Below are positions 21,964 to 47,105 of a stretch of DNA of 64,000 nucleotides, in pieces. Both the position numbers and the translations under genes were made by a program. Each line of letters begins with the position of its first letter. Position 1 is the first letter of the stretch. The notes beneath the pieces are model-generated. The model made no database searches. It had not been told where the DNA came from and saw nothing but the letters and a program-made list of their open reading frames with translations. This DNA is from Marsupella aquatica (taxonomy: Eukaryota > Plantae > Marchantiophyta): assembly GCA_973895155.1 (NCBI GenBank), contig OZ316894.1:14213680-14277679 (forward strand), in the 5' to 3' direction.

Positions 21964-23659
21964 ACTTCTTCACATACTGAGGAGGTGGTCCTGGGAGATA
22001 TGCTGGGCAAAGAGAAAGAAGAGAGTACAAGGCGGACTGGCGAAGGGGTACGAGACCCTGAAACAGATGCGGAAGAATCAGAGGAGTGCATTAGAATCCT
22101 GAGAGGAATTGCGCTCAGATCGAAGCTAGGGAGATCTGGATAAGAAACTGTATGTGGGCCTGGAATGGAATTTGCAAGAAGCAGCGAGGAATGTGAGACA
22201 ACTGTACAATTGTGCAATGCTGTGCTACTTCACCGGGCGTACCCCTCTTCTTTCAGCTTTCAGAGAATGGGTGGAAGAGGTGATGACAAACAGGGAGGAC
22301 TGGTCGATCCTGCAGATTAAATATGTAGGGAAAAACTTCTACATGGTGGTCTTTGAACATCCAGACCATCGGGACCTGGCACTCAACTATGCTCCTTGGT
22401 TCTATGAGTGTCAATTTGTATATACTCTCCCGTGGGACCCTTCTTTTGATGTTAAAAGTGATAGCTTCACTAAACTACCGGTATGGATAGAAATCCCATT
22501 TCGTGCGCTTGCATTGGAAGGATGCAGGAGGAAGATCGCAAGCACATTGGGTACCTTGCTCTACTACATCCAGGGAGACCAATTTAGCTCGTACCCACAT
22601 GACCATGCCTGTATCCTATGGGACACCGACAGGGAAGTGCCCTCTAGTGTGAGAATTCAAATCCGTGATGACATTGTGATTTGGCATCCGATGACATTTA
22701 AAAATATCCCATATCATTGCTATAAATGTAACCACAAAGGGCACCTGGCCTGCAACTGTAAAGAGGAGCCAGAGGCAACTAGCAAACCACCTGAAGAGGG
22801 GACCCACCGAACAAGAAGGATGATGAGCGCCATTCGGAGGCAGATCCTGAGGAGGTCCTCAAAGCTGTAGCCAATGCAGAAGCAAGGGCTCTTTTTCGTG
22901 CAACAATGGCTGCCCCACCCCTGCTGGTCCCCTTGGCGATGGTTGTGGAGGAGGCTTGGACGGAGCGCTACTTCCGGTGCCCCTCCTCACTGGGGGAGGC
23001 TGGGCCTTCCCTCGGGCAACCACAACATGAACCTCATGACCCTGTGCTGGATCCTCTAGTGGGGGTGGAGCAGATACCTTGGAGGATTATGGTCCCACCT
23101 GAGGGTCCCTTGCGATCCCCAATTCACAAAGTATTCCTCCTGCTATGGAGATTGAGAACCCCTCTGGACCGAGATCACCACTTGACCTGTTGATACCTGG
23201 TTTTGAGCTTGCTATTCTCCCTATTGAAGCACTGTCTAGTGTAGTAGTGGCTCAACTGCCACTCATAACCAGAGGGTCGGGAGAGGAGGAGAATTTCTCT
23301 TTTCATGAGAGCTCAGATGCAGAGATGTCAGAATATGAAGAATATATCCTGCATAGCAAGTTTAAGGCTAGAGCACGTAAACAGGAGCTGCGCACGCCGC
23401 CAACTGAGAGATCAGAGAAACTTAAAGGAGAAGCAAAGAAGCAAAGATCACTCAACCTTCTCACGGGGCTTCGTGTCTGATGCAAGTGGGTGTACCTCAA
23501 GGGAGCCAAGAGAGCAAAGGAAAACACTGCGGGTGGACATGCGGGAGGCTACAGACTCAGGGTTGGCACTGATTTGCTTGGGTACTCCTGAGATTGTGTC
23601 CCCAAGACGTGACTCACCTAAAGGTTACATAAGCGGACCAACAAGTGGACAGGTCTTCT
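21964..23659 (+). pseudogene. LINE-A ORF1 relic (DUF4283-type domain plus CCHC knuckle)
   Basis: EWNLQEAARNVRQLYNCAMLCYF...LPVWIEIPFRAL...CYKCNHKGHLACNC, closely similar to LINE-B ORF1; frameshifts and stops present. Confidence 0.88.
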
Positions 23660-24018
23660 CACTAGTAGAAACCGGGGCAATTTAGACCAAACCTTATAGG
23701 ACTAAGGCCACTAAGTCCTTTTTGGCAACCTTAAATGACTCGAAACCATTGCCACGGTTCACATGAACACTACAAAAGACTGTGAGTGCTTTTTGGTTTT
23801 GGATAAGACTATGAAAAGTACCCTTCTTTGTGAATGTATGAACACTCTAGCACATGATGGGTTGTAGGGTTTAGTTGTGGGCTTTAATTTGATAATGGGC
23901 ATATGGGGGGGGGGGGGGCACAATTCATTTGACGACCTCTTTACCAACATCCCGCTAACTTGAACACGGACAAACGGCGTAAATGTTGAAATTCCCTAAT
24001 TTTGAATATACTCCATAG

Positions 24019-24510
24019 TGGGTTTGGGGGGGTTTAGGGCTCAAGGGTGGGCCAGTTACATGCGAAGGGTGTGGGGGTTCACCACTAAAGGGGTTTAGGG
24101 GGGTTTATATGCCAAGGGTGGGCCGGTTAGGTCTCAAGGGGGTGGGGGTCAGTAAAGGGGGTTTAGGGTCAGAGAACACTCAATTGAAATAGTGACGCAG
24201 CGATTTAGGGTAAACGAACAGGGACCGTGGACCCTAACTTGTTTGCTGCCTTGGGAGGATTTGGAGAGCTGGAGGCAACATGCTTCATTGATCCTGAGCT
24301 TGCAAGCGGCGCTCTAAAACGGCCCGTGGCATTGCAAAAACAGTCTGGCCACAGTCGAGTTGTCAAGACATTTAGGGGATTTATATGTCAAGGTGTGGGG
24401 GTGGCTGAGTTTTCACTAAAGGGGGTTTAGGGGGGGTTTATATGTCAAGGGTGGAGGGTTGAGATGTCAAGGGTGGGGGGTTTAGGGTTAAGGGGATGGG
24501 GGGTTTAGGG
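24019..24510 (+). repeat. G-rich, telomere-like subterminal repeats of the CACTA
   Basis: Repeated GGGGTTTAGGG, CAAGGGTGG and CACTAAAGGGG units. Confidence 0.75.
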
Positions 24511-25604
24511 ACCATTGGATGGAGTCCATCGATCCCCACCATCAAAAAGTCGCATATTGGAAGTTTACTCAGCTGGGCTATACTTTGAGAGGGCCGAGTA
24601 GTCATGACTTAGCACTAGTTTTTTAGGGGCTAGACAAGGCTTGGAGTGTAATTAATTTAGACACTTGAAGTAGAGGGAATGGGGGCCTGGGGTTAACATG
24701 AAACCTGCATATTGATGGTCGAGATCACTCAAGGCAATCTCTTTTCATCCGGATGGCTGAGATCACTCTAGGGGCTGCCATGTCATAGTAAGGTTGACGC
24801 CAAACGGCTCTTTGCACCCTTTTCACCCTCGCGCCTTTCAGTCGTGTTTTACTTTTCTCACAAAGTATCGAGGCTCAACGTTGAATGTTGCGGTTAGTGT
24901 CTGCCACTCAGCGTTTAGGGCGAGAGGGTCAAGGGGTTTAGCAAGGTTGCGCTGCTGTTTTGCCTCAAGAGTGTGCAATCAAGGCTTCAATCAGGTCTCC
25001 AGGAGCTGCGGGAGCGCTATGCAAAGTGTTGCGGGAGGATGTGCAATGTGCTGCGGGAGTGCTGTGCAATGTGTTGTTGCAGGAGTGCTACTGCGGGAGT
25101 GCTGCACGGGAGTCTGAGCTCAGTGGGAGGGTTTAGGTTTGGCTGATCGATGTGCATTTACAATTGTGGATAGTAGTTTGCATTGGAGTTGCAAAGGAGC
25201 TCGCCAGAGTTGTGAAGGAGCAGGGTGTGGGAGTTGCGGGCTGCCATCGGCCCTCCTATTTTTCTTTTACTCCCACAGCGAGCTCCCGTATGAGCTCTTG
25301 TGTGAGCTTTGTTCAGCTGCGGTGGGTGCTGAGCTTATTTCCGTCGAGCTCAGTTGTGCTGTGCTGATTTTTGTCTAACAAAGCTCGGGGGAGGGTTGTC
25401 GGTTGGACGTTGGAGCTGCGCTTGTGATATTTTGGGGTTCGGGCAAAGGGCGGAGGGCGGAGGGCGAAGATCAAGCATTTTTGTTTTGCTAACGCTGCGT
25501 GGTGGAAACTGGACCTGCGAACTCCTTGTCTATGGTGTTGTGGAGCTGGGCGAGCTGCAACAAGGGACCAAGCCGGGCGACCTGTGAATTAAGGCCCATC
25601 GATC

Positions 25605-26105
25605 GCTGCTGAAGGTTTGATGTCCAGATTTCTTGCCTGTGAGTCCCCATGTTTGCAGTCTCTGTCCCAATCTCTTGCGTAGTGCTCGGCGTAGTGATTA
25701 CACTTACTGTGATTGACCACCTTGCATGATCTACATCCGTGGGCTAGACCCCAAGAAGTAGATTTCGGCGACTACTTGCGAAAGGGATTGAAGAGATTGG
25801 AGTGCTTGCTCTCTTTGTCCCTCCCCTTGAAATTGTGGGCCTTAAAAAGGTCACTTGGCTTATGTAGTTTTGCTCCCCTCCGCTATGTCAATGCGCGCAT
25901 GTCCGCTATGTCAATGCACATTTTTTCCCTCTTCTATGTCAGTCGCCGTTTGCCTATAATTGGATTGCTCATTTGATGTCCACTCGTCTGATGTAATGCT
26001 TCCCGTTGCCGCTGCTGAAGGGTTGATGTCCAGATTTCTTGCCAAACAAAAGTCCCCATGTTTGCAGTGTCTATCCCAGTCTCTTGCGCAGTGCTCGGCG
26101 TAGTG
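25605..26105. repeat. ~95-bp direct duplication inside the CACTA (25605-25696 and 26011-26105)
   Basis: GCTGCTGAAGG.TTGATGTCCAGATTTCTTGCC...AGTCCCCATGTTTGCAGT...AGTGCTCGGCGTAGTG occurs twice. Confidence 0.85.
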
Positions 26106-27819
26106 CCCATGATTCGATAGGGAACTGATTCATGAACTGTGACTACTTTTATGCTCTGCAATGTGAATATGTTGGCATTTGCTGCACTTGGTGTTGATAG
26201 TTTTTGTTAAAACTTCAATTTAAGTACGTGGGAGATAGACGGGAAGTCGGACGGGGAGGTAGAAGTGCACGGGAGACAGACGGGGAGACAGGAGGTAGCG
26301 AGCTATTGATTTGCGCCTTACATGACACCGCCCAACATTCACCTGCTACAAGGACTCATCTTGGTGCGCTTTGAGAATCTCCGTGCTGCAAGGTGAGACT
26401 CTTTCCTAGTCGTGAACTTATATATGCCCTCTCATAGTCTCGTTTAATATTGAGGAATGACTATATGCTTCCGTGACACGGCTCATCTGTCCATTTTTTA
26501 CTGTGCACGGCTCATCTGTCCATTTTTTATAGCATGATTGACGTCAGCTGTGGCTTAGTCCACCTTCTTGTAACAAAGCAGGCGGTGATTGGACCAGATC
26601 GTGTACTTGGAGCTGCCCCTATCGAGCTGAAGGAGCGTCGAGCACTCTAAGGCAAGAGTTTCTCCTGCATTGTTACCTGGTTACAAGGTTACTCTAAGGC
26701 AAGAGTTTCTCCTGCATTGACAACTTTCCCATGCCACCTTCAATCAGTTTTCCTTTGCACCTTGGCTTGATCATTTCAAAAAACCTGTCACATTGAGCAC
26801 GGAATCTATCGCCTAAGTTCAGCCTTTCAGCTTTTTTCCGGACTGTCACATAGCGAGTCGGTCGCGCTACCGGAAGTACTACCACTTTTACTATACGGTT
26901 CATCTCAGTGCCTTTTATGGAATGCTTTCTTGTTCTTCTACTCGGCATGGCATCATCCTGATTGCCCGTCGCTGTGACCAGCAACGGAAAGCGTAGACTC
27001 GCGTTTGGATTCAGAGTCTAATCCAGAGTGTAAGGCTCTGAGCAGACCGTAATAGGAAGCCTGCCTGATTCTCTAGCCGATCCGACAGAGAGCCATCCTT
27101 GCAGAACCTGTTTGAGTGTGTTCCAGTGTTCTAGTGTTCAGCTTTCGAGTGGGTTTTGTTATGATTTGATTTGGTGATTGTTTTGGAGTTGTAGCCGTGG
27201 TCAAACGCATGTCTATTAAAAACAAATTCATGGAGCTCAGGTTGCTGCTGTATATAAACCGCAACAGGATCCAGAACTGCCTGCAGTCCCAGCAAATCAT
27301 ACATGCTACAGTCACAGGATAGGAGTTCAAGAAGTCTTCACAGTTTCTCATTTTTGTAGAATCTGAGATGTTGCTGGCCCAGGAGATGAGTTTCCCTTAA
27401 GAGTCAGGGACGTCAGCAGTGTGGGCCATGTAATACAGTTGAGAATGATGGCAAGTATAATTTGTTAATGGGTCCAATGCCATGTTTGTGAGCTATTGAG
27501 TTGGATAGGAGAAAAAAACCAAAACATTGTCGCAACTGCTTCCAGAACAATCATTCATGGTTAGACTAAGCTCGGCTGAACACCCCTCGCTTGCATGGGG
27601 CGGACACAATGCGGAATAGGCTGTCATGGAGTTGTCGAATGGATCTTCAATTTTCATGATAAATGTCCCCGAGCGTTCGTCCTATGTGTAGATTTTATAG
27701 GGGATGATGGGCGAGGATCATCTTTCCCATCTTCCTGAAGCTTTGTCTGCTTTCTGCCACCTCAGTGGAGGTTCACTTGCACAACACGACAACCAGTGAG
27801 TTTTCTCTTTGCTGCAACC

Positions 27820-28734
27820 TGCAAGGTGAGACTTTCGATCTTTCTGGATGAAAAAACAGGATCCAAATATGATTTATGTACATGTCCATGGAGAACATGG
27901 TTTTATATACATGCTCTTTGTCTCAGGAACTTAGCATCAAATATGTACTATGCACCTTTCATGCTATGTGTATATTGTGACCTGTAGTTGGAACCAATTT
28001 AGTGAGTGGGAGCTGATAAGTGCAGGTTGGTTGCTGTGGGCAAGGCAAGTCGACCTCCTGCTCGCCTTGCTCATCAAAGGATGTGAACAGAGGACATCAC
28101 AACAAAAGCAACATTTATGGTGAGGACCCGCAACGCTGAACATGTGTGGCTTGCATGCAAGGCAAAGATGTTGCGCCTTGAGTATGTCAGACTGGGGATT
28201 CTTCCAGCCCAATCTGCATGGTACTTTGAGTACTCTCACGGTTTGCTTATGGCCATTATTTGCAATTTGCTGCTACTAATATGTCTCCGACTGAGCAGCA
28301 TACACCGGAAGTAAGCAATAGTGGAGGTTTAACTGCACATCAACACATCCAGTGAACTACCTCTCTGCTACTCACTGGAGGGTGAGACTTTCACTCTTTC
28401 TGGATATTGTAGTTTGTAAGCAAGTTGATTAGGAGTGTTTCATGCTATGTTTACATTGTGACCCCTAGCTGGAACCAATGGAATGACACAGTGAGTGGGA
28501 ACTGATAATTTAAGGTTGGTTGCTGTTGGTGAGGCAAGTACAGCTCCTGCTCACCTTGCTGATCGAAGGTGCTTATCAGAGGACGTGAACACACGACACT
28601 CCACAAAAGCAACACTTATGGTGAGGACCCGCAATGCTGAACATGTGCGGCTTGCACGCAAGGCAGAGATGTTGCGCCTTGAGTATGTCAGACTTGGGAT
28701 CCTTCCAGCCCAGTCTACATGGTACTTTGAGTAC
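27820..28734 (+). repeat. Tandem duplication of an intron-exon unit (donor GGTGAGACTTTC, acceptor CATGCTATGT...TAG, MVRTRNAEHV... exon)
   Basis: 27960-28233 and 28440-28734 are near-identical; both encode MVRTRNAEHVxLAxKAxMLRLEYVRLGILPAQSxWYFEY. Confidence 0.85.
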
Positions 28735-29067
28735 CCAGTTGTTGCCAGGAATAACTACAGCCGCCCTGTACCTGCTTCTCCACCCTTCCCAACATCCTTG
28801 GTATTTTTGTCTCTCGTACATGACCCGCCACAAATTAGGGCCCAAGGGTGTGTGCACAGTTGCCAGTATGACTGTCCTGCCTGTAGGGCTTCTGGCCTAG
28901 AGTTGGATGACCGTTCTCTTGGATGTCGGTTTTTTCATAGAGCACAATGTATCATCTGGAACCACTCGCCATCCTGCAGTGTGCCTGGCGATGTCACTTG
29001 TCCTGCCCTCCCAGACCCCACCACCGGTCACTTTGGTGTCTACACATGTTTGGATCACACGCTGTAG
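28618..29067 (+). CDS. CACTA cargo ORF, Cys/His-rich putative zinc-binding protein
   Basis: Open frame 28495-29067 (first ATG 28618; may be joined to upstream exons). C-terminal half reads CVHSCQYDCPAC...CRFFHRAQC...HSPSC...TC...TCLDH. Confidence 0.5.
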   Translation: MVRTRNAEHVRLARKAEMLRLEYVRLGILPAQSTWYFEYPVVARNNYSRPVPASPPFPTSLVFLSLVHDPPQIRAQGCVHSCQYDCPACRASGLELDDRSLGCRFFHRAQCIIWNHSPSCSVPGDVTCPALPDPTTGHFGVYTCLDHTL

Positions 29068-29736
29068 AAGACCACTTGTCACACCGCATGCACAGACCAG
29101 AGACCATTGACCTATAACTTAACACTTTGACTTGAACAGAGAGGATATTTACTTAAGATTTTGAATTATGAGCAATTTTGGGTCCAGGGTTTACGGTCAA
29201 CAGTACATAACTTATCCTATTATGGCTGCACTAAGTACAATATCCTAATTTAAGAGGCTAGCAAGCTCACTTAAAAGTCTCCTTTCAAAGACTGGAATTA
29301 ATGGGCCATGTGATAACCTGGAAAAAGTAATTTATGCCTAACTTATTTGTCTCATTCACTATCATAGCCTATTTAGGATGTATAAATTACAACCCTGATC
29401 ACACTGCTTGATACCAATCCTGTTCAAAAAATGCCTGTTTTACATGTCACGACTGTTATATGTGATTCAAATGCATTAAATCTTGTTACAGATCTCCTTT
29501 GGTGAATCATAGCCACAAAATTGAGGTGTAGGTGGAGCTATTGTATGAGGGGATCAGTTTTTAGTGTGGGCTCAACAAACCAAAAAGTATGTCTACTCTG
29601 CACATGTGTGTGAACATTTCATTGCAGTAGCAATTGCCACTCTAGTCTATATGCTACACTGTACTTTTTGTACACTGCACTAAATTGTATTGTTTGTGCA
29701 CTCTACTAAATTGTACTATCTGTCTTAGGCGTAGGC

Positions 29737-30417
29737 ATGGCACGCCCTAAAATCCGAGCCAAGAAGCGGGGGACAGAGGTGAGCAACACAGGTGTAGTTG
29801 GGCCAGATGGTAGTAACTTCTCCGCAAGTCAGATTTTCCAGAAGGCAGCTCATTGTTGTGCCATTTGTGACGATGGTGGTGGCTTAGCCATATGTGAGGG
29901 CCCTTGCATGAGGCATTTCCACCTCAACCCGAAGTCTGACCTTGCTGCAGAAAACAACTGTCCAGGGGTGGGCCTCCCGTCAGCACACCAGGGAGGCTGG
30001 ATGTGCACTGATTGTTTGGAGAAGCAGGCTAAGTGTGCACAGTGTGGGAAGTTGGGGTCTTATGAGGGCTCTGTTGATGCTCCACCACTTGTTAGGAAAT
30101 GCCCTGACAGATATTGTGTGAGGTTCTTTTGTTTTTCATGTTTGCCCGATCTTGCCACAGCTTGCCCACTTCATAAGTGCAAGGCATGTGGTCAGCACGA
30201 TGAAGATTTCTGGGTGGACATAGTCCACTGTGTTAGGTGTCCCACCATGTGGCACTTTCATTGTTTGAAGGAGCGTCAAGCAGAAGGCTATGCTTGTGAC
30301 AGACACATCTATCATCACTCTGCACATGGTGTTGATCGATGGATCTTCTATTGTCATCGCCATGCCATAGATCCTACTTTGCACACTCCCATGAGAGATC
30401 ACATTTCTTGGCTTTGA
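29737..30417 (+). CDS. CACTA cargo: stand-alone EDM2-type (ENHANCED DOWNY MILDEW 2) PHD-finger cluster, 226 aa
   Basis: Basic N-terminus (RPKIRAKKR), then CAICDDGGGLAICEGPCMRHFH, CTDC...CAQCGKLGS, CPLHKCKAC, CVRCPTMWHFHC and RWIFYCHRHAIDPTLHTPMRDHI. The order and motifs match the PHD region of plant EDM2 as I recall it (CAICDNGG..CCEG.C.RSFH; CPLHKC..C; CRRCP..YH..C; LIYC..HEID..L.TP.RDH). Confidence 0.85.
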   Translation: MARPKIRAKKRGTEVSNTGVVGPDGSNFSASQIFQKAAHCCAICDDGGGLAICEGPCMRHFHLNPKSDLAAENNCPGVGLPSAHQGGWMCTDCLEKQAKCAQCGKLGSYEGSVDAPPLVRKCPDRYCVRFFCFSCLPDLATACPLHKCKACGQHDEDFWVDIVHCVRCPTMWHFHCLKERQAEGYACDRHIYHHSAHGVDRWIFYCHRHAIDPTLHTPMRDHISWL

Positions 30418-31444
30418 ACCTGAATAATGTACATGCATAGTGCACCTGATGTGGATACCTTGGAGATTGCAGACATTCCAATTTTGAGAAGAAGGACCTC
30501 TGTAGGAGAGGATGCTTAGGCAACAAGTACCCTAAGTTCATTACTTGTTCCTGGGTACATGCCTTCAAAAACTCCCCTTAAGCCTTCTAGGAACTTTTTT
30601 AACTCTGCAATCATTTTGATCACGACTTACATGACACTGCTTAAATTAAATCAGGACTTCTCATTATGAGCATATAAGTTACAAGGCAGACAGAGAACTG
30701 ACAGTGGACTTGCGAAGAAGGGCGGAGGGACTTGTGCTCATCCATGAGCGTTTCGACCTTCCAGAAGGAGATTGAGAGGGGCAAAAAGCTTCTCGAGAGG
30801 GGTGGAATCGATACGAGGATGACCCCTGCTTCTGCACGAAGCTTTTTCTGCTCTCTCTCGCCATCGCTACGATCGGGATCCGCTTTAGAGCCGGTTCTGC
30901 TGTTTTAGGGTGGAATACTAGTCTGGATTGCGGGAGCACAATTGTGGAGATCCGGTCATGAGAGTTGGAGCCAGGGGTGGCGGATGAGCCGATGCGTTAG
31001 TCTAGCGGGAGCACCTTTCCCGCTGCCACTTTTGGAGGCGGGGATTAAAAGGTAGACACATTGGAACAGGGGTTCGCATCGATCTGGTGGGGTGCTACAG
31101 TGGGCGACTGAAACAAATGGTGTGGATTACGGCAACGGACCTTGGTGTCTGCAAGCTCGGATTGGACAGCGAGTGGCGGCACTCAGATTCCTAAAAGTGT
31201 TTGGAGCTGACATTGCCAAAGAGGATGGCGGAACATGCAGAGAAGAGTTAAGGCGGCACAAAGTGTGCCTGAGTGGTTCTATTCTGACGGGAGAATTATG
31301 GAATAGTTCGGGAAGGACATCTTGGTTAATGAGATTGGACCCAGTGGACTCGAGAGGAGCCTGGAGCCCTCTTCGATTACAAGGTAAGCACTGCCCCGAA
31401 CATCTTATTAACGCCGTCTGACTGTCATTGCATACATTAATTTA

Positions 31445-33610
31445 ATGTCGGGCGAAGGTGAAAAGGGATTGGACTACTACGGGCGCTCAGAAACCACATC
31501 TCGTGGAAGAAGCGATCGGAATGGACGTCTTTCTGAATCAAGGAACATCCGAGTGGCTACACCAATGGCTGTCCAGACTAGAACGGGGACGCTTCAGGGG
31601 GTGAGAGGGCGCGAGACCAATCTGGTTGGTTTGGCCTCTCAGAATAAAGGAAAACTCGGAGAGGAGGGAGTGGGGAGGTGCAACCAATTCTCGGCGCAAG
31701 ATGCGCGGAATGATGGGGACGGACCACGGCGGGAGAGAAAGGGAGGAGGCAATCCTGGCCTACAGGGAGAGAGTAGGGGGGCTCAGCCGGCTCACAACGG
31801 GAGATACAGGACGATCTGATGGACATGGAAGAGGATGAGAATGGCGGCGGCTCAGCTCGGGACAAGGTCCCAGCCTTGGATGGAGAGACACGACGTAGCC
31901 TGAGAGGTGCAGAGCTCAGGGGAGAGGGTCCTGGAATCTGTGGAATCTCAAATGGTACCCGGAATCCTGATACATGGGGCCGCAAAGGAGCTGAAGAGGA
32001 GGAAACATCGGAGGAATGTATCAGAATTCTGAGAGCTGTAGCACACCGCTCTAAGGGTGACCTTGACAAAAAGCTGTTTGCCACAGTTGAATGGAACATG
32101 ACGGAAGCAGCTATGAATGTGAGGCAATTATATAACTGTGCCTTGCTATGCTACTTCACAGACAGAACCCCATTGCTTCCAGCCTTCAGAGACTGGGTAG
32201 AAGACGAAATGACTAGCCAAGGGCGCTGGCCGGTGCTACAAGTCAAGTTTGTGGGGAAAATTTTTTACATGGTAATCTTTGAAGAACCTGATCATCGGGA
32301 TCTGGCACTGAATGGGGCGCCATGGTTTATGGAAAATAGATTTGTATACACCTTCCCATGGGATCCAACCTTTGACATAAAAAATGAGTCTTACACCAAA
32401 TTGCCAGTATGGATTGAGCTACCATTTAGAGCCTTGGAGCTGGAAGGATGCAGAAGGAAAATTGCAAGCGCGCTTGGCACCCTACTATACTACATTCAAG
32501 GAGACCAATTCAGTTCTTACCCACATGACCGTGCGTGCATACTATGGGACACTGACAGGGAGATACCGGCAAGTGTTCGAGTGAAAATTCAGAAGGATAT
32601 AGTAATTTGGCAACCGGTGACCTTCCGCAATATTCCTTACCACTGCTACAAATGCCATAAGAAAGGGCATCTAGCCCGCAGCTGTCGAGAAGGAGATGAA
32701 GGGCAGAGGCCGACGAGTGTGCTGGAAATACCTGATGAAAAAGACGACGAACGACACTCGGAGGCTGACCCAGAAGAGATACAAAAGGCCCAAGAGAATG
32801 CTATGGTCCGGGTTAAATTCAGGGAGAACCAAGAGCGGCAGGCGAACACGATCTGGAAAAACTCAGTTGAGGAGGAAATTGCCCATGTGGAGCTGATCAT
32901 TGCGACAGATGTTAGAGAACCGGACAAAGGAACTCCAACTAACCCACAACGGCCGAATGTGGGTGCTATTGGGATGGAATTGCTGGAGCCCACTCGTGGA
33001 CCCTTGGACGCCATGGTGAGATGGGAACCGACTAGGACTAAGGGGAATTCGCGAGACTTCCCACCTGGGAGTGGACTGGCCCGGGATCCTGGAGGTAACA
33101 CAGACCGCAGAGGCTCTGTTCTAAATGCCAGTGCACCAAGCTTTGGGCCGGAATTCAGCACGAAGGCCAGAACAGACACACTCGGGCTTCCAGGATCGCT
33201 CTTAGAGGTAGAAGCCGAAGGGAATTTCTCGTACCATGGGGACACCGATGCAGAGATGTCAGAATATGAAGCTTACATATCGAATAGCAAACTCAAAGCA
33301 CGAACCAGGAAACAAGAATTGAGAACCCCCCCCAACTGAAGATAAAGATAAGCCGAAGGGTGAAGCAAAAAAACAACGTTCGCTGTACTTCTCATGAGGA
33401 TCCATGTCTGATGCAGGTGCGGGCGAAAGCTCAACAAGGACAAACAGATTGCTCAGCCCTGAAACGAGGAGTCCGAGAAGTGAACAAAGAGGCGCAGCAC
33501 AAACTAAGATGAGAGACGACTACTCCCTGATAGGGGGACTGACTGAGCAGCAAACGGGGAGCGGCTCTCAGGGCTGGATGCTATCCCCTGGAGGACGGAA
33601 TCGTATCTAG
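31445..33610 (+). pseudogene. LINE-B ORF1 (DUF4283-type domain plus zinc knuckle); main open segment 31819-33339
   Basis: APWFMENRFVYTFPWDPTF...LPVWIELP...CYKCHKKGHLARSC. TGA at 33337-33339 falls where LINE-A continues (RTPPTERSEK), and there is a probable frameshift near 31.8 kb. Confidence 0.85.
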
Positions 33611-33670
33611 GGTGACGGTGTGCTGACCAAGTGCACCACTCGACTTGGGGAGCAGCGGGGGGGGGAGGGG

Positions 33671-36600
33671 ATGGAGAACATAATGCGGATTGCCACATGG
33701 AACGTCTGTGGGCTGTGTGAGACAAACCGCAAACATGTCGTCAAAAACTGGGTACAGGCACTGCGATTTCCGCTGGGATGCCTAGCTCTACAAGAAGTGA
33801 AGACGGATCAATTCTGTTTGGACATGGCTCTGAGAACAATTCTCTCAAACTATCAACACTTCTCATCGGCACCAGAGGAAGGCAGGGGAGGAACGGCACT
33901 TCTGGTCCACCCGTCTTTGAAGGTGGTAGCATCAGGCAAACTGGACCTTGGCAGAGCTGTGTGGATAATCATTGAGAACGAAGGAGGCAATTATGGAGTG
34001 GCATCTATCTATGCACCAAACTCGGCTGACTTAAGGGCTTTGCTATGGAACGAGCTTAAGGATGAGCTTCCGCAGGTAAACTGGATCATCTGTGGCGACT
34101 TCAACATGACAGAAAGAAGAGCGGACTCAACCGGGAGATCACCTCTGATCGGCGGAAGAGAAGCGGAATTCTGGCGCTTCTTAAAAACGCGCTTTGACCT
34201 GGTAGATGCGTGGGAGATCACCGGGGGCGCTACGGGTGCCCAATTCACATGGAGAAGGATGAGAAGGGGATTAATGGTACAATCCCGATTAGATAGATTC
34301 TACATTAGCGAGAAGGGATGGTGGTTAGAGGAGAGAGTAGAGCTGGTGCATGAAGGAGGATCAGCGTTATCAGACCATGACCCGGTGATACTGAAAGGGA
34401 GGTTCAGAGATGCAGGTCAGAAGGTGGAGCGAGGTAAGGTGAGACTATTCATGGCCAATCCAGCGCTTCTAAGCAACAAGGAGGACCTGACGCTTCTAGA
34501 AGGAGCCTAGAGGGAAGGAAGGAGGGAATTTGCAAACCCTGTGCTGCGATTTTCAAAAGCGTGCTCCAATTTTAGGCAAAAATACATGGAGTTACAAGCA
34601 AGACCAAGGCTGGCAGAGGTTGAGATGGAGTTTCTTAGAGCGAGAATGAGAGCACTGAAAGCATCCATTCTGGAGGAACACACAGAGGATGAAATCAAGG
34701 AATACACGGAAACGGAAGACACACTGCATGCAACCGAGTTGGAAGTGGCTAATAAGGGACGGAGACTTGCAAGGATTAAATGGCTGGGAGAAGGAGACGA
34801 ATCAACAAAGTTCTTCTATGCGATAGTAAAGGCTAAACGCGCCCGAGAAACCATGAACCTGATTCTCAAAGAGGATGGGACGGAGATAACAGAGGCGGCA
34901 AGCATTGTGCTTGAAGTGGAGAAAATGTGTCAAGCACTTTATGCAGCGCAGGAACCCTCACAAAGGGAGACACAAGAACGACGGCAAGAGAGGAGACGTC
35001 TACTGCAACACACAAAATTTGCGCTTACAGCGGCAGAGAGAATGAAATTGGAAGCTCTCCCGACAACTAAAGAGGTGAAGGAAGTGCTTTGGATGCTACC
35101 AGGAGACAAATCGCCTGGCCCAGACGGCTTAATGGCAGAAGTACTGCGCGCATGCTGGGAGTTTCTGGGACAGGACTTGGTGGAAATGATACAAGAATTC
35201 TGGATGACAGGAGAGATTGATAGTGCGTTAAAAGAAGGGATAATAAAGCTCATTTCGAAGAAGCCTGATAAGAGATCACTGAAGGACTGGCGTCCCCTTA
35301 CAATGTTGAACACAACGTACAAAGTCATTGCTAAGATCCTGGCATTGCGGTTACAAGAAATCATGAACAAGATAATCAGCCCCCAACAGATCGGATTTAT
35401 ACAGGGGCGCCACATTCTGGAAAACATCTCACTGGCCTGGCTCGCATGTGACTGGATACAGCACAAGAAGACGGAGGCACTTTTCTTGAAGTTGGATTTC
35501 GAAAAGGCCTTTGACAGGGTGAATCACGAATACATATGGGACACAATGCACTTACTGGGAATAAGTGGCCACTTTATCACACTGGTACGGGCTCTGTTGG
35601 TTGGATCTTTCTCGAAGGCAATGGTCAATGGTTTTGCGACGGGTATGATTGAGCTTAAGAGGGGGGTGAGACAGGGCTGCCCCTTGTCGCCCCTACTTTT
35701 TGTCATCTCGACACAACCGCTGATGGACTTCTTAGCTGCGGAGATGGAGGCTGGGAGACTTAGTGGACTGTCAATCACGGACACACTCACAATATGCTAC
35801 AGATTATTCGCAGATGATGTTGGAATGTTCATTCCTGCCACGGAGGAAGCTTTCACCCAGGCACAAACTGCACTTGCATGTTATGAAATGGGTTCTGGAG
35901 CAAAGCTGAACCTACGAAAATCTGTGGTGATTCCCTTGGCAATTGAGGTCATCCTGGATTGGCTGCTGTACTCTGGCTGTCAAGTGAGTGCAATGGGGGA
36001 GGTTCAGAAATATTTGGGCGCTCCCTTGGGGGCCGGGCTGAAGACTGAGCAACTGCACAAATTCTGCCTAGATAAAATCAGCTCACGACTGTCATCCTGG
36101 ACAAATAAGCTCCTCTCTTTCACAGGTCGAACCTTATTGGTCAAACACGTGCTCCAGGCCATCCCAATCTACCATGTGATGCACCTCAAGGCTTCAGCGG
36201 GTCTGGCCAAGAAACTCATTGCCCTCAGTAGAGATTTTCTGTGGGGATATAATCCTGCAGGTGGGAAGAAAATTCCGCTGGTGGCATGGGACAAGATGAC
36301 ACTTCCAAAAATAGAGGGCGGCCTGGGATTCAAGGACTTCAGAAGCCACTCCAATGCATTATTATCACAATGGTTCACTAAGGCCCTAGAGTATCCAGAC
36401 AGGGAATGGTCGAAGATGCTGGCAGCCAACTTATCTTTAATGGGATGGTTGAATTACAAGGTGATCAGAAGAAACAATTACACGTTCAAGGATAGGCTTC
36501 TGCTCTGTACTCCTAGGGCAGGCGGTGGTCTCAGGTATACAAGTGGTCTATGGAAGGCTTGGGAGGAGCTGCGTGCCCATCTGGCTTTTTGTCCTGGGAG

Positions 36601-37597
36601 ATATGGTGCCCCTGGACGCTGGAGCATTAACGATGCAATTAGATGTATGGTAGATTTCAATTCATTGCCAAATGTGGACATTGTAGGAGTCACTGCTATT
36701 TGTGGACGCTTGGGAATGAGATCAATTCAGGACAGGGGCTGGAAAGACCTTCCGCTTAGGGGGCAGGTGCTGCGAGGATTCACGGGGGAGCACAGAGGGC
36801 TGGCTAGAGCGTTCCTAGGGAGAATTTGGGAGTCAACTGCCTGCAGGTGGGACAGGGATCCTCCGGCCAGACAGTGGCGCTGGTCTGACAGGGCAGAACC
36901 TCTCAAGGACTTTCAGATCACCAACTGCAGGGTCTACCAGTTCTTGAGACCCAAGATGAGCCTTCATGTGCTGCTTAATAGGTGCTGGTCCTCACACCGG
37001 TCGGAAATTGAATGGTGCATTGGATGGAAGAAGCTGTGGATTTCTGACCTCTCCTGCAGGGCAAAAACCTTTATCTGGCGGATCCTGGTTGGTGGATTGT
37101 TTACTGGTCAACGGGCCCTCCGTATCCAGGCTGGTACTGGGAATTGCAAGCTTTGCTGTGGGGTCTTGGAGACGATGCAACATTTGTTCATTGAATGTTC
37201 CCATGCCTCATGTTGCTAGAGGATGTGTGACAGGATTTTGACGGAGCTTCGCTTACCCATTGGAGGTGGTCTGCTGGCTATTCTTGATGCATCGACAGGA
37301 CCGGAGCCTATTCACACTGCTAGGATCTTTTGTGTATATCAGACTCTCTGGATGATTTGGCTGGGAAGAAATGAACATATGTTCTCTGACAAGGTGGGAC
37401 GTTCCTTTGACTTGGGCCTGATGCTTGCTGAGACTGCCAATCACATCCATGCGGTTGGGGCTGGTTTACGCTTTGGGCGGCGTCGCTCTCGGTTGAACCG
37501 GGCTCAGGAATGGTTGCGGGGAACGAGGCAAATCTGGCTGAGACGGGGTGGGGACAGGATTCTCTTGGTGCCCTCTAGCGGCGGTGGTGCTGATTGA
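33671..37597 (+). pseudogene. LINE-B ORF2: APE endonuclease, reverse transcriptase and zf-RVT; one frame with two premature TAG stops
   Basis: IATWNVCGL, LQEVK, SIYAPN, GDFN, SRLDRF, SDHDPV; DKSPGPDG, DWRPLTMLN, KLDFEKAFDRV, GVRQGCPLSPLLF, LFADD; CKLC...ETMQHLFIEC. ORFs 33620, 34541 and 37223 are in the same frame, separated by TAG at 34508 and 37217. Confidence 0.93.
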
Positions 37598-38173
37598 GGG
37601 GTCTGCTTTTTGGGGGGCTGCTGTGGGAAGGGCATGGGTGCTCTCTTGATCGGTGTTATTTCCCTTCTTTGAGGGGGGGCTCTCCCTGGGGCTTTGATGC
37701 TCTCTTTTGTGCTTTTGGGCTCTCTTTGTGGCTCGCTAGTGTGCTGTTGCTGTCCCTGTATTAAGGGCTGTTGTTCCCCCTATCCGTGGGGTCTTTCACG
37801 GTATTAAAATTTATAAAAAAAACCATTCCAAGGAAGTTACAAGGCTATTTAATTTGCGAGAATTCCCTTAAAGTGTACCAACATTTTCTATTCTCATTGA
37901 ATGTCTGCCCATTTACAACATCTGTATGTGGCATCACAAAACAATTGCACTTGTCACCTTCAATATTGTCAAGGCACATATTCAAACTATGAGGTGCATG
38001 CTTGCAGGTGTCTAGTACGTTTGTCCCAATATTTCTCCCGTTTGGAATCGGAGCAGAGACTCACCAGACGACTGGACTGGACCAAGTTATAAACGCAGCA
38101 TTTTAAGGGCCCTCCGATTATCAGGTGAACGCATTATCTTCCGGTCTGTAGTGATTAGGTGGCACGTGTGTAC

Positions 38174-39022
38174 ATGGCCTCTAGGAAACGTACAAAGGTT
38201 GACCACCCGCCTCTGTTGGCTGGAATCAAAGCCATTTTGATTCCTGGCCACTATGGGTTCACCCAAGTGAGTTGGCCAATCGTACAAAAACAATTCTCAG
38301 AGTTCCATGGGACTGAAGTCAAGGACATCACTCCACAGACTACACATGTTGTTGCGGGGACATGGCTGGATGTGATGAACAACTGGTCATGGTCCTTCAT
38401 TGATTCTGCCATTACCAACCAAGGTCTAAAAGTAGTTGAAGTCTCTTGGCTGACCGATTCTGTTAAACATAGGTGTGTACAGAGTACTGAGCAATATGAG
38501 TTGTGGGAGAGTGAGGAGGCCACTGCAGAGGCTTTGGCTGAAAAGGAAGCCTATGAAGCAGCGGCAGAGAAACCCAACTTTGCTTTTGTCCAATATGGAC
38601 CTGTTGTCAACATAGGACACCATCCTATGCGTGCAGATGCTATATTGAATGAGCATGGCAAGGAGAGAAATACCATTATGAAGGGGTTCAGTGTGGTATT
38701 TGCAGAAGAAGGAATTGGGGAGACTAAGTGCAGATTGTACAAGTCTATAGTTGTTGAGCTAGGTGGGACAGTGGAGAAGAGTCTAACAGAAACCTCCACT
38801 CATGTTGTAGGTCTGTCATACATGAAAATATGCAGAAAATTCTTTAAGACAATAGTGCGTGATTTTGTCATGAACAACAATCTTTGGGTGCTTTCCCCTG
38901 ATTGGCTTCTGGAATCAGCAGCTAGAGGGAAGCGACAGAATGCTTGGGACTTTGATATTTTTGAGGCCTGGCCCTCCAAGATTCAGCGGAGATGTATGCT
39001 TAGCAAAGGTGGGAGAGAGTGA
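38174..39022 (+). CDS. CACTA cargo: tandem BRCT-domain protein (BRCT resembling that of plant DNA polymerase lambda), ~282 aa
   Basis: NLS-like MASRKRTK. Two repeats carry BRCT hallmarks: LLAGIKAILI...TTHVVA...VVEVSWLTDSVKHRCVQSTEQYEL, and IMKGFSVVFAEEGIG...VELGGTVEKSLTETSTHVVG...VLSPDWLLESAARGKRQNAWDFDI. They are joined by an E/A-rich linker. Confidence 0.82.
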   Translation: MASRKRTKVDHPPLLAGIKAILIPGHYGFTQVSWPIVQKQFSEFHGTEVKDITPQTTHVVAGTWLDVMNNWSWSFIDSAITNQGLKVVEVSWLTDSVKHRCVQSTEQYELWESEEATAEALAEKEAYEAAAEKPNFAFVQYGPVVNIGHHPMRADAILNEHGKERNTIMKGFSVVFAEEGIGETKCRLYKSIVVELGGTVEKSLTETSTHVVGLSYMKICRKFFKTIVRDFVMNNNLWVLSPDWLLESAARGKRQNAWDFDIFEAWPSKIQRRCMLSKGGRE

Positions 39023-39198
39023 GGAGTAGGAGTCCCTCATATTTTTGTATAAATCACAATTTTGTAATAAATGTGATCCTTGAACTAACTCATCTTGTCA
39101 TGGTTGGTCGCAGTTGAAGTGATTGTTGTTTCCTGCTGCGTGGGGTGTGACTGTGAATCTACTTGCTGGGCTCTGTTTGGCTGAAGACTTTGGTGGGT

Positions 39199-39732
39199 AT
39201 GCTGCCTCTTCCAGACCGTCAGGCCCTATGTAGGGTCCTCCTACGGGTTGCATCGTGCATGGCTACTGCTTGGGCTTACTTGTATGGATTGGTAACCAGA
39301 CAGAGTGTAGCTCCATCTGAGATAATGCCTGCAGACCTTGGATGTGTTGTGAATGTTGTGGTGAATGAGGATGCACAGTCGGAAGAGGACATTTACTTTT
39401 CAGCAGATGAGTTAGACAAGCACGATGCTGTAGGTTGTTCCTTGTTGCCTGATTTGGCAGATGATATAGTTCTTACACATGTCTGGCCGAGGGTTCTTGT
39501 GGTGTCTGGCGCACAAGATATCTGCAAATATAGACTAATTAGTACCCAGTGGAGGGACTTGGTAGCAACATGTGCACCATGGAGGGCACTGCTGCCACTG
39601 CTTGTAGGCACGGATCGAAGACCACCATGGCATGAGCAGGGTTTAGACCTTGATGACTTAATGTACATGCCTGAGTACCTCAGGGCTGAGTGGCATCGAC
39701 AACAGGATTGGTATCCATATTTGATGTGGTAG
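39199..39732 (+). CDS. CACTA cargo: small F-box-like protein
   Basis: SLLPDLADDIVLTHVWPRV...ICKYRLISTQWRDLV matches the F-box pattern LP.LP.D/E.....L.RL......R.VS..W..L. It has a hydrophobic N-terminal segment and an acidic linker, and no recognisable substrate-binding repeats. Confidence 0.65.
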   Translation: MLPLPDRQALCRVLLRVASCMATAWAYLYGLVTRQSVAPSEIMPADLGCVVNVVVNEDAQSEEDIYFSADELDKHDAVGCSLLPDLADDIVLTHVWPRVLVVSGAQDICKYRLISTQWRDLVATCAPWRALLPLLVGTDRRPPWHEQGLDLDDLMYMPEYLRAEWHRQQDWYPYLMW

Positions 39733-40058
39733 TAAGATGAGGACATCTCACACCGGTCTCGCACCTGGCACCTGTGTCTATGACTATACATGATTGGACT
39801 CTGATATGGTCATGGATGTACGTGCAGAGGCAGTACATGTGAGGACAGCGGAGGAGTTGACACCCTCAAACATTTAGGAATTTTGTCTCATTCACTTGAG
39901 AATAGGTACATGACTCAGGCACCTATATTTTTTGTTTTTTTGTTTTTTTGGAACGTTACGTATTTTGGCAAGTACAGTCGGGGGTGAAATCCTTAACAGG
40001 AAGTGTATTTTTCACTTGCATAATAAAATGACAGGGTGCTGAGTGCGTGTGTATAGTG

Positions 40059-43000
40059 ATGGCTCCAAGGTTGCCTCTTCACAACCCATTTAGGATTAGG
40101 CATCATGATTCTAAATTGTGGATGCATGAACAAGCCCGGGCCGCCCAAGGTAGGAGTAGGAGGATGAGATGCCCATGCACACAGTGCCAAGGACTCAAGT
40201 CGTTGAGTTTGAACACTGTGCACCTTCACCTGCTGCGGCATGAAAGGCACCCTCGGTGGAGGGTTTGGAATGTACCAGCAGAAGAAGACTCCTCTGATGA
40301 AGAGTGGAGAGCTGACTTTGTGGATTCTAATACAGCTAGGCGTAGAGACTACGTAGAGCAGGACATAGACTGTGCAAAGGATGGTCCTGGGGTCCAACAT
40401 GAGAACATGGATGACCAAGATGGAGATGGAGAGGCAGTCACTGAGGACGATGGGATGGATGTCCCAAGAATGGTTCAAGAGATTTTTGAAGACCTTGATG
40501 CTTTTTACGACACAGTGGAATCAGAAGAGGACAATGAACCGCAGCCACACATTGGCGACGGCCAAGCTGAACCTGACTTTGACATTGGGGAAGGTGCAGC
40601 AGAGAGGGAGTGGGTGTTTGGGGGCCCAAAACACATCAAAGAAGCTTGCATTCCTATCTACGAGGGGTCGAACTGCTCCAAGCTGGGTTTTGTCGTGTTG
40701 TTGTTGAACATCTGTGGCAATCACAATGTTCCCAATATATTTGTGACAGAGTTGTTGACCTTCCTGCGCCGAAATGTGTTACCAGATGGTAATTCAATTC
40801 CAAAAAATATGTACGAGGCTAGGAAATTGATGTCTAACCTTGGGCTGAACTATGTGTCTATTGACGCATGCCCTGATGGGTGTGTTCTCTTTCGCAAAGA
40901 GCATGCAGATAAATTGACATGCCCTCATTGTGGTAAGCACAGGTACAAGAATGTAGGGAAATGTACACACCCTGCCAAGGTTCTTCGTCATTTTCCTCTC
41001 ATTCCTAGACTACAACGTCTGTTTAGATGCCCTGCCATTTCCAAGCTGATGACATGGACTCCTGATAACAAGAGCAGTGATGGCCTGCAGCGTCACATTG
41101 GAGATTCCAACCATTGGAAATTTGTTGATGAGAGGTGGCCACAGTTTGCTGCAGAGAAGCGGAACTTTAGATTTGGTCTATCACTGGATGGAGTAAACCC
41201 ATTTGGAGACAAAAACAACCGTTATTCATGTTGGCCGGTTACGCTGCTAAATTACAACCTTCCCCCATGGATGACTACAAAGAGGTTTTTTGTCATGATG
41301 GTGCTGTTAATCCCTGGACCAGCTTCTGTGACCGAGCAATTCATAGATATCATGTTGGCTCCAGCAGTGGAAGAGTGGAAGACTTTGTGGATAGAAGGGG
41401 TGTTAACCCATGATGTTCTGAAGGGGCTTCTTCGACCCAGCCCCTTTAGATTGCATGCAATTTGTTTGCTGGATATAGCAGATTACCCAGGCCATGGCAT
41501 CATATCTGGACGAGTGACAAAGGGCTATGTGGGGTGCACACCATGTGGGAAAAATGTGACAAGTGAGTGGTCGCATGCCCTGCACAGTATGAAATTTCAG
41601 GGGCATAGAAGGTATCTGCCTGTTGATCATCCTTATAGGCACACACGGTCTCAAATTGCACACTTCAACAACAAAACAGAGCTTCGTGGCCCACCACAGA
41701 GGGTCACCAGAGAGCAAGTCCTGAGGTGGGCAGCCAGGAAGGCTGATTGGGACAAGAGAAGTGCCACTGATCGAGAACCTGAGGATCCAGTGGTGAAACA
41801 CGGTGTGAAAAGACAGACCTTGATGGACTTGGAGTTGGAGTACTGGAGGGTAATGTACTTAGCCTCCAGCCCCTGTATGATTGCAATTTTAGATTGGAGC
41901 AATGGTGGATTGATGTTGGTTACAATCCTCCTATGTGGTTAATTAGTGTTTCTGTTGTTGAATTCTTTGCTTTGTGGAGTGCAGGAATTCGAGCCCAGCA
42001 AACACAATGTGGACGTCATGCACATTGAGAAAAATATTTGTGAGAGCTTGCTGAAGTTCTTGTCGGGTGAGAAAGATACAGGAGCAGTTCGAGCTGATAT
42101 GCAACAGAAGGGGATTCGCCCTCACCTTTGGTTGAAGCCCCATGCAAGCAATCCCAATGTACTTCTCAAGTTCCAAGCTCCCTATGTGTGCACACAGGAT
42201 GAATGGAAGACATTCTTGTATAGATTGAGCTGTCTGAAAGTGCCCTCTGGCTATGCTGGTGCCTTCAAGAAGCATATTACAAAGAATAAACTTGGCAGTA
42301 TGAAAACACATGACTACCATGTGTTGATGCAGCACATTCTGCCCCTATGCCTCAGAGGTCTCATGCAGAAACCAGTCCGTAATGTCATTCTTCGACTGTG
42401 CAATGTATTTTGCCGTATATGTGTGAAAGTGTGGGATCCCCAAGGATTGGAGCAGTTGAAGCAGGATGCTGCTTATGTCCTCTATGACTTGGAGATATAC
42501 TTCCCCCTTGCTTTCTTTGATGTTATGACTCATCTCCTAATCCATGTGGTAGAAGAGCTAGGGCAGTATGGGCCAGTCAGTACCAGATGGATGTACCCTA
42601 TGGAGCGATACATGAAGTTGTTGAAAGGTCATGTGAGAACATACTACAGGCCAGAGGCTTCCATGGCATTGGGGTACATTAAGGATGAGACGTTGGGATT
42701 CCTAACAGAGTACATGGCTGGGTCTGGTGAAGCTATGACAAGAGTTTGGAAATCTGGTGAAGATGGAGTGAGTGGCGAGGTTGTTGAAGGTGTGGGACGT
42801 GCTGTTCAGCTGCCTGTTGTGATTCGAGACAAGGCTCATTCATATGTGCTGGCAAACACAGAGCCTATGCAACCATGGTGGAGGTGAGTGATTGAATTGA
42901 CTTGCCTTTGTTGTGATGCTTCTTGTCTGTTCCAAGGGTGATCTTAGGTTGTCATGTGTTGTTTAGACCTAACTATGCCTGTACCTCATATTGCAGGGAA

Positions 43001-43756: not shown

Positions 43757-43933
43757 GCAACAGCTGGCGATTGGCAAGTATGAGGTTGAGGATGACTACC
43801 TGCACAGAGTCACATAACGGAAATTGCTACCTGGAATGATGTTTAGGATAGTTGGATATGCATGAAATTGATTGATACTTTGAATTTAGTGTGCTGATTC
43901 TCCCTGTTTGGTTGTGGGTGCTGTGCAGAAGCT

Positions 43934-46900: not shown

Positions 46901-47105
46901 TATAGGCATTTTGCGACCGGATCATGCAAAATTCCATGGCAAAGTGGTCCCGGATGACCATGTAGTAGTGTTGTTGACTACAGTGATTGTATCTGATTGT
47001 AATTTGCCATTTCCGAATAGAGACGATGATCCACCTCAGGAAATAATTGCAGATGCAGTAGGATCTCTTGTGCTCTGGCCATCAGAGTGTGTTAGTCTGC
47101 AGTGA
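43934..47105 (+). CDS. CACTA TnpA-like (ORF2) multi-exon gene
   Basis: Probable exons include 43934-44276, 44410-44556, 44671-45289, 45408-45500, 45630-~45881, several short exons, and ~46510-47105. It has an acidic N-terminus, GRGGTP repeats, a Transposase_24-like QWTRLIKGFMSEAGQSKSELMSNARGKVKHLSQAGRGSYA, and a C-terminal FHGKVVPDDHVVV...LPFP...IADAVGSLVLWP typical of En/Spm TnpA-like proteins. Internal exon limits are approximate. Confidence 0.78.

Follow-up and report, generated by a model that had tools for sequence, protein, structure and literature searches.

A stand-alone EDM2-type triple-PHD gene carried by a CACTA transposon of the liverwort Marsupella aquatica

The window analysed here, a stretch of 64,000 nucleotides of Marsupella aquatica DNA, contains a CACTA (En/Spm) element that carries a stand-alone ORF of 226 aa for an EDM2-type triple-PHD protein. 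We consider it very probable that this PHD ORF is a functional, selected gene, and judged from its sequence its product is probably a non-enzymatic reader of the histone H3 tail. The ORF belongs to a family of ~220-aa PHD proteins that are 36-81% identical and have a common start and end. An N-terminus of H3-mimic pattern and neighbouring BRCT and F-box-like ORFs go beyond what a first-pass annotation of this DNA had described.

Architecture of the CACTA element

The element had CACTA...TAGTG termini, short terminal inverted repeats (TIRs), a 3-bp TSD and a TnpD gene, the features by which CACTA elements are recognized. It splits an older LINE (LINE-A) into two colinear halves and is itself interrupted by a second LINE (LINE-B). 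The features were as follows.

22027..23659 (+), 5' half of LINE-A, broken by the CACTA element; DUF4283, matches LINE-B 1270-2732
23657-23659 and 47927-47929, TSD TCT on both sides of the CACTA element
23660..47926 (+), CACTA (En/Spm) element, 24,267 bp including the nested LINE; TIRs 18/18 identical, TSD TCT, Transposase_21
23660..23677 (+), 5' terminal inverted repeat
28618..29067 (+), 149-aa Cys/His-containing ORF of no known family; partial duplicate at 28102-28233, 93% identical
29737..30417 (+), stand-alone EDM2-type triple-PHD ORF, 226 aa; translation, Pfam, ligand alignment, profile and model
30688..37833 (+), LINE-B, nested, with a 12-bp TSD at 30676 and 37834; RT, endonuclease, DUF4283
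38174..39022 (+), tandem-BRCT ORF, 282 aa, second accessory gene; BRCT E 2.3e-13 in two stretches
39157..39732 (+), ORF with a weak F-box-like stretch, tentative; F-box E 0.078, under the cut-off
40059..43756 (+), TnpD-type transposase in three ORF blocks with likely introns between them; Transpos_assoc, Transposase_21 E 1.3e-59, DUF4218, DUF4216
44400..47105 (+), likely TnpA-like exons, 3' of TnpD; Transposase_24 E 0.028, under the cut-off
47909..47926 (-), 3' terminal inverted repeat; AAAGACT four times subterminally at 47601-47733
47927..51879 (+), frameshifted 3' half of LINE-A; LINE-B 2984-7146 matched, with switches of frame

The PHD ORF lies inside the 18/18 identical TIRs and the flanking TSD TCT, which confirmed the earlier description of it as transposon-encoded. 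TnpD stands ~9 kb (LINE not counted) behind several accessory ORFs, and the PHD, BRCT and F-box-like ORFs together form an unusual accessory gene array. The tandem-BRCT ORF had one relative at 61% identity and no match at E 0.01 among PDB sequences. The 149-aa Cys/His ORF had no Pfam match at E<0.3; it was considered as a second degenerate PHD and rejected, as neither PHD profile matched it. Read depth was high over the BRCT and F-box-like ORFs, as over TnpD, and was also high over the 149-aa ORF. LINE-B was confined to the window copy of the element, and the LINE-free joint 30675 -> 37834 was found in 3/4 read runs. Because this joint skips exactly LINE-B, the usual form of the element has ~600 bp between the PHD ORF and the BRCT ORF downstream of it.

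The 5' region of the element is long and contains repeats and two similar splice-donor-like sites. An AG is found shortly upstream of the start codon in the PHD, BRCT and TnpD ORFs alike. Before the PHD ATG, AG dinucleotides stand 8 and 2 nt upstream behind a pyrimidine-rich stretch, so that the 5' leader of this ORF may contain an intron. The ORF had been called intron-free, and this was upheld for the coding region while the AG and pyrimidine tract point to a leader intron. The pattern fits En/Spm-style splicing from one common leader to PHD, BRCT and TnpD, as we infer it from these sites; alternative splicing and split genes are both described for the CACTA superfamily in PMC13547354.

The PHD protein and its family

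The PHD frame runs from ATG to TGA with zero internal stops and ends IFYCHRHAIDPTLHTPMRDHISWL. Pfam returned PHDvar_NSD (E 3.8e-5) and PHD-1st_NSD (E 3.7e-4), both under the curated cut-offs. An EDM2/NSD-type profile built from 109 regions, none of them from the PHD-ORF family, matched the ORF at E 2.3e-36, and the runner-up among the 1338 six-frame segments of the window scored E 0.54; the PHD identity of the ORF is therefore far above chance. Translation and profile thus bore out the composite PHD array of 226 aa that had been read at 29737..30417. The parts of the protein were as follows.

29737..29766 (+), basic N-terminus with an M-Z-R-X-K pattern, a small residue at 7 and Lys at 9
29857..30015 (+), finger 1, C41-C93, C4HC3; E54 acid and W88 kept, acidic patch before C41 gone
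30034..30174 (+), finger 2, C100-H146; His to Cys at C132, EDM2 linker of ~21 residues deleted
30178..30363 (+), finger 3, C148-H209, with the EDM2-type terminal motif behind it

Cys or His was found at 24/24 zinc-ligand positions of the PHD ORF, so the first-pass annotation was right about the retention of zinc ligands and understated it in speaking of most of them. Full-length relatives kept 22-24/24 ligands and had 31-81% of the other positions in common. Two changes in finger 2 were fixed in the family: ligand 5 was Cys instead of His in 10/10 family rows, and ~21 residues of the linker were lost family-wide as compared to host EDM2-like proteins. In finger 1 the acid after the third ligand (E54) was present in 10/10 family rows, and Leu50 and the aromatic residue at 88 were also kept. 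Three residues before C41, where 7/10 host rows have Asp, the acid was replaced by Ala or Pro in 10/10 family rows. No aromatic cage of the ING/BPTF type was evident in the PHD ORF at the positions that we take to form such a cage. E54 aligned with the acid after the third ligand of AIRE. In AIRE PHD1, Asp312 binds H3R2 and Asp297 binds unmethylated K4 (PMC2685098). By our own matching of these residue numbers to alignment columns, it is plausible that Asp312 has an equivalent in the PHD ORF and that Asp297 is replaced by His39. Binding of the H3 tail by the PHD protein is plausible from these residues, and the mark preference of EDM2 cannot be carried over to it; this preference may be lost because the acidic residue before finger 1 is gone in the family. 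The first-pass annotation had pointed to H3K9me2 among the marks read by this region of EDM2. With the acidic residue of most host rows absent from 10/10 family rows, H3K9me2 reading by the PHD protein cannot be assumed.

The AlphaFold model of the PHD protein (65 rows) had a mean pLDDT of 88.9 and a pTM of 0.83 and, save for roughly the first 30 residues, was confident throughout; it superseded an earlier model made from 14 rows (pLDDT 66.8). A structural search of the PDB with the model returned no chain at Z 8. The best matches were NSD PHD5-C5HCH pairs (Z 5.7-5.9, rmsd 2.6-4.6 over 81-87 residues) along with single PHD fingers, and no EDM2 structure was among the PDB matches. By sequence there was a weak PDB match to NSD2 (E 0.03). 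Although the PHD5-C5HCH pair of NSD1-3 was the best structural match, it covered less than half of the PHD protein at middling Z, and the PHD protein lacks SET and PWWP, with only PHD models matching it. Scored with the family profile, NSD-like proteins reached 69-88 bits and EDM2-like proteins 104-144 bits, and the EDM2-type terminal motif was present in the EDM2-likes and absent in 4/4 NSD-like matches checked. All of the long matches of the family profile (6/6) carried the EDM2 domain set or name, which together with the terminal motif supported the EDM2-type identity that had been proposed.

The module shares its three (2 1/2) atypical fingers, in the same order, with EDM2/ELP1 and the EDM2-like proteins (AAE complex, ASI1/IBM2, AIPP1/EDM3). 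It also has the terminal motif YCxxH...TPxxDH in common with them, and at 23/24 ligand positions it carries the residue found in most host rows. It differs from EDM2 in being transposon-encoded, in its long-branch clade, in the finger-2 His to Cys swap and linker loss and in the lost acidic patch. It also lacks the RFD, acidic, ELP methyltransferase-like and proline-rich parts (domain list as given in PMC7529245), so the large flanking domains of EDM2 were absent as had been noted. Since the RFD and methyltransferase-like domains are absent, the PHD ORF product is not an EDM2. No RFD match was found in the scanned ORFs of the window, and a longer form of the family was absent among the 6 long matches, which is weak evidence. 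The product has no DNA-binding domain and no catalytic domain, and therefore nothing seen gives it specificity for its own element.

Five close relatives of 217-245 aa were 81, 75, 54, 40 and 38% identical to the PHD protein. All five ended on the same motif and 4/5 started at a Met near the same place. The family relatives at 36-55% identity were covered at the protein level, and their residence in CACTA elements is putative. The full protein scan gave 239 matches at E <=0.001, and among the best 150 of 239 the short relatives came first, followed by long plant proteins. When 32 long matches were scanned, 11 had an RFD plus a PHD module, and one that was looked up was named EDM2-like. The best long phmmer match was a Calypogeia protein (E 7e-23), and the best host identity of the PHD ORF was ~27-40%. 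The 11 short relatives that were looked up came from Logan, JGI/IMG and ENA only and were named nothing beyond hypothetical protein; among these 11 there were no NCBI or UniRef entries. A metagenome scan for the context of the family confirmed 0/118 stretches. A second scan gave 1/48, a 19-residue match in the marine contig L001 that was dismissed as chance.

Phylogeny placed 14 family rows in one clade with a support of 99. In a 40-row tree, from which 19 fragmentary, odd or redundant rows had been excluded, 10 family rows formed a clade (100/99) on a long branch, outside all 26 host rows. A separation from host EDM2-like proteins was seen in this phylogeny, a kind of check that the first-pass annotation had proposed. 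The host clade of the free tree was supported at 89/92 (unstarred). Because the family falls outside all host rows on a long branch, the donor of the PHD ORF is EDM2-type judged by sequence and unplaced within the EDM2 family. A sister grouping of the family with the RFD-less liverwort paralogues was compatible with the data (AU p 0.44), and a sister grouping with the pair containing Selaginella EDM2 was borderline (p 0.047); both groupings were picked after the tree. The liverwort paralogues (Marchantia MPTK1_1g03210 and MPTK1_4g03050; Riccia, Calypogeia) resemble the PHD ORF in having the PHD module at or near the C-terminus. They differ from it in being longer, in keeping the ligand-5 His and long linker of finger 2 and in being annotated host genes.

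The stand-alone layout turned out not to be unique to the transposon, as annotations for Marchantia, Miscanthus and Eleusine include short PHD proteins of EDM2 type with 280, 287 and 386 aa, respectively. These annotated proteins grouped in the host clade and not with the PHD-ORF family. The Marchantia protein, MPTK1_4g03050 (P0066, 280 aa), is nearly nothing but an EDM2-type module. The grass-type short EDM2-like PHD proteins P0034, P0044 and P0085 (the last from Eleusine) also start M-A-R-x-K; two of the three were included in the tree and fell in the host clade, and an independent origin of the same layout is possible for them.

Selection on the PHD gene and its possible roles

The PHD ORF was evaluated for copies and selection in read data. 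Of eleven read runs considered, 9 contained part of the region and none was recorded as RNA. Depth was compared over 28800-48300 using four runs, and X3, X4 and X8-X11 were left out. In run X2 the 741-bp PHD ORF region was covered by 974 contigs across four identity bands. The depth of the PHD ORF relative to TnpD was 1.14 (X1) and 0.93 (X2), and relative to the LINE-B median it was 119 (X1) and 177 (X2). Depth does not measure copy number, and the PHD region was itself used to select the runs, so the parity with TnpD is only a hint of similar abundance; X1 or X2 may also be the source of the window. In the more distant run X6, depth peaked at a PHD bin (1820) and at two TnpD bins (2286 and 1380) with most non-coding bins <10, and zero contigs were >95% alike on the PHD ORF. 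The X6 peaks show shared conservation of the PHD ORF and TnpD and not their physical linkage.

No indel in the PHD ORF reached a share of >=25% in the 4 runs; one X6 contig skipped 72 bases. From 67 variants of the PHD ORF, 40 were analysed with sites treated singly, giving 19 synonymous changes, 21 non-synonymous changes and 0 stops as compared to 10.8 synonymous changes and 2.0 stops expected under the same mutation spectrum (P 0.003). None of the 40 changed a Cys, with 3.0 such changes expected (P 0.035). The rough dN/dS was 0.41, and the constraint is moderate, not strict. Disruption of the ORF in most family copies, which had been raised as a point against the gene, was not seen in these variants or runs. 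Variants mostly private to the window copy, defined as an X2 alternative letter at >=80% of depth (a cut-off that we chose), were 2 synonymous and 8 non-synonymous, and the others were 17 and 13 (one-sided p 0.048). This pattern fits neutral decay after insertion together with selection on the propagating copies. The many variant copies, the lack of a common indel, the 0 stops and the synonymous excess argue that the PHD ORF is a selected accessory gene and not recent scrap. The prolonged divergence under selection that had been suggested from the ligands is in line with the ligand conservation, the synonymous excess and the separate clade.

We propose that a CACTA family captured an EDM2-like PHD module in an ancient event, possibly from a paralogue like the RFD-less liverwort ones. 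Its transcripts would carry a 5' leader joined at the splice acceptor immediately ahead of the PHD ATG, and the product would bind the H3 tail through finger 1 with a specificity altered from that of EDM2. In the most speculative part of this proposal, the PHD protein might occupy or relay, on the chromatin of the element itself, the step at which EDM2 reads, and transcription might then pass the upstream accessory ORFs and poly(A) sites and reach TnpD/TnpA. A counter-silencing or read-through role of this kind, which predicts binding and expression of the PHD protein, is put forward tentatively, at somewhat less than even chances. EDM2 promotes full-length transcripts across intronic heterochromatin (PMC7890070; PMC7529245), and transcription past heterochromatic poly(A) sites is the job of the donor family (PMC7890070, PMC7529245, PMC9292364). 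An Arabidopsis Spm family is reported to be active while H3K9me persists (bioRxiv 10.64898/2026.08.24.746577), and an aid to read-through would be useful in such an H3K9me-retaining state. That the transposon keeps a trimmed copy of EDM2 under selection suggests that conflict or exploitation centres on the step at which transcription passes through transposon heterochromatin. The 226-aa protein also represents a compact natural EDM2 reader module and gives a handle on fold and mark specificity.

Captured accessory genes in plant TIR elements (VANC, Ulp1/KAONASHI, NDX-B in TnpA) and readers in retrotransposons are already known. Like the PHD ORF, VANC and KAONASHI/Ulp1 of VANDAL MULEs and the NDX-B-like part of En/Spm TnpA are captured chromatin-related host modules held as separate genes (PMC13547354, PMC13317346). 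Those of the VANC/TnpA type with known function recognize DNA motifs of their own element, whereas the PHD protein is of the histone-reader type and lacks a DNA-binding domain. Anti-silencing cases in plant transposons are described as few, with the protein-based ones that we surveyed acting via DNA motifs (PMC12973397; bioRxiv 10.64898/2026.08.24.746577). Retrotransposon readers (chromovirus chromodomain, CR1-like/algal PHD, CopiaMBD; PMC6673714) also place a host reader on a mobile element, but as polyprotein domains, whereas the PHD ORF, with its triple finger of EDM2 type, is a gene of its own in a DNA transposon. In Table S6 of PMC12973397, which covers active TIR clusters in 1007 plant genomes, PHD appeared in 5 rows, all MULEs, and in 0/775 CACTA clusters, in a Pfam survey that could miss the PHD ORF as it scores under the Pfam cut-offs. 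In our literature search, which left most subscription papers, Repbase and the Spm preprint supplements and figures (962 predicted structures, among which a PHD accessory protein may be listed) outside, no CACTA element was described as carrying a stand-alone reader of EDM2 type.

A different use of an H3-tail reader would be as a targeting adaptor, in which the PHD protein binds TnpD/TnpA and tethers the transpososome to nucleosomes of a given H3 state so that insertions are steered to tolerated sites; the tandem-BRCT protein would work at the DNA break as part of this step. We regard this as unlikely but as the most credible of the alternatives. The BRCT ORF does lie beside TnpD in the element and the window copy sits in a LINE, a landing from which heterochromatin targeting had been suggested as one option. 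It is a single insertion site in a window made mostly of repeats with a FIP1 gene ~8 kb away, and the landing was rejected as evidence for targeting and carries no weight. Most of the readers known to act in targeting form part of the integrase or transposase by fusion, and the PHD reader differs from them in being a separate ORF. On the side of targeting, chromodomains, PHDs and MBDs of retrotransposons have been proposed or shown to guide integration (PMC6673714), and accessory proteins bind transposases in CACTA, PIF and MULE elements (PMC12973397).

The N-terminus of the PHD protein raised a further set of readings. M-Z-R-X-K defines H3 N-terminal mimics and is fitted by 48/20,996 human proteins (PMC8166343). 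In the family it was found at the first Met in 9/20 N-termini (10 with a second Met) as compared to 3/144 other proteins. The 20 N-termini were picked by eye after three N-truncated rows and two near-duplicates were excluded, the related rows are not independent, and the start codon of the PHD ORF was inferred from conservation. Among the 10 fitting N-termini, position 7 was Ala or Ser in 10/10 and position 9 was Lys in 6/10, matching A7 and K9 of H3 as printed in PMC8166343. The pattern is that of the mimics VRK1 and BCL11B, which are human host proteins (PMC8166343); unlike these, it stands here on a transposon protein with a PHD of its own, and its function is putative. In the broadest reading, which we find improbable, this CACTA lineage has evolved a multi-gene chromatin toolkit whose core, a mini-EDM2 reader with an H3-tail mimic at its N-terminus, hijacks the host machinery that shields genes against intronic heterochromatin or decoys H3K4/K9 readers and writers. 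If true, it would be counter-silencing at the histone level, unlike the VANC and TnpA systems based on DNA motifs.

Mimicry as the main function is more doubtful again. After Met removal the N-terminus would resemble H3 1-9 and would serve as a decoy or switch, either by binding the host's readers or by titrating away H3K4/H3K9 methyltransferases; in a variant, it would fold into finger 1 as an auto-inhibitory latch that methylation releases. Besides the residue counts there is a faint hint from the 65-row model, which lifted residues 5-8 over pLDDT 50 and formed one beta-bridge there, the rest of the tail being unconfident. Against this, residues 1-4 were below 50, the shallow 14-row model had no signal at the N-terminus, and one family sub-clade has the R-x-K internal and not N-terminal. 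Basic runs likewise open the BRCT ORF and its relative, and therefore a nuclear localisation signal, a sufficient alternative for the basic N-terminus as far as its composition goes, would explain much of the pattern. A transposon-borne H3-tail mimic was not found in a literature search of titles and abstract starts; if true, it would add plant mobile DNA to the viruses and host proteins in which histone mimicry is known.

It is very unlikely that the ORF is a passenger, an EDM2-like fragment carried without benefit as in Pack-CACTA elements, with its conservation a product of search bias. Captured sequence most often ends as a pseudogene (PMC13317346), the database relatives were gathered by similarity and a length filter, and several short matches were truncated or frame-shifted (P0009, P0010, P0015 and others), but broken copies are expected in any transposon family. 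The synonymous excess and the lack of stops and common indels in reads are independent of gene calls, the His to Cys swap and linker deletion are fixed in the family with the fold kept, and a common start and stop persist at 36-40% identity. The element also departs from Pack-CACTA in that TnpD is present and in its host identity of ~27-40%, reckoned without the host's own EDM2 gene. We give equally little credence to the idea that the proteins are mainly short EDM2-like readers encoded by a host gene family (or by an old domesticate) of which this sub-lineage alone rides a CACTA element, for although short host-annotated EDM2-type proteins exist in liverwort and grasses, these fall in the host clade, and the family proteins that were looked up occur in raw-assembly sources only, as expected of repeat-masked transposon genes.

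Surroundings of the element

A multi-exon host gene for the polyadenylation factor FIP1 occupies 7216-15435 (-), with the Fip1 motif at 13105-13263 (E 6.5e-23) and a 42-bp repeat array in a long exon. It lies ~8 kb left of the CACTA element, and this proximity is probably a coincidence. The gene rules out a view of the whole window as gene-free heterochromatin, and because of its distance of ~8 kb the insertion site of the element is repeat-rich yet not gene-free.

The remainder of the window held other repeats. A fragment of a PIF/Harbinger-type transposase was found at 19973-20485 (+) (Plant_tran E 2.4e-25). G-rich repeats, which we take to resemble plant telomere units, were present at 16723-17034, upstream of FIP1, and at 24019-24508 in the 5' region of the CACTA element. 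A Copia-type LTR retrotransposon at 51988-57859 (+) had 197-bp LTRs that were 100% identical and an open frame of 1575 aa, and is therefore a very recent insertion. Nested long inverted repeats of foldback-like form extended over 59886-63995, with arms 78-95% complementary and 91- and 99-bp tandem arrays inside, and part of this region resembled 1873-2115.
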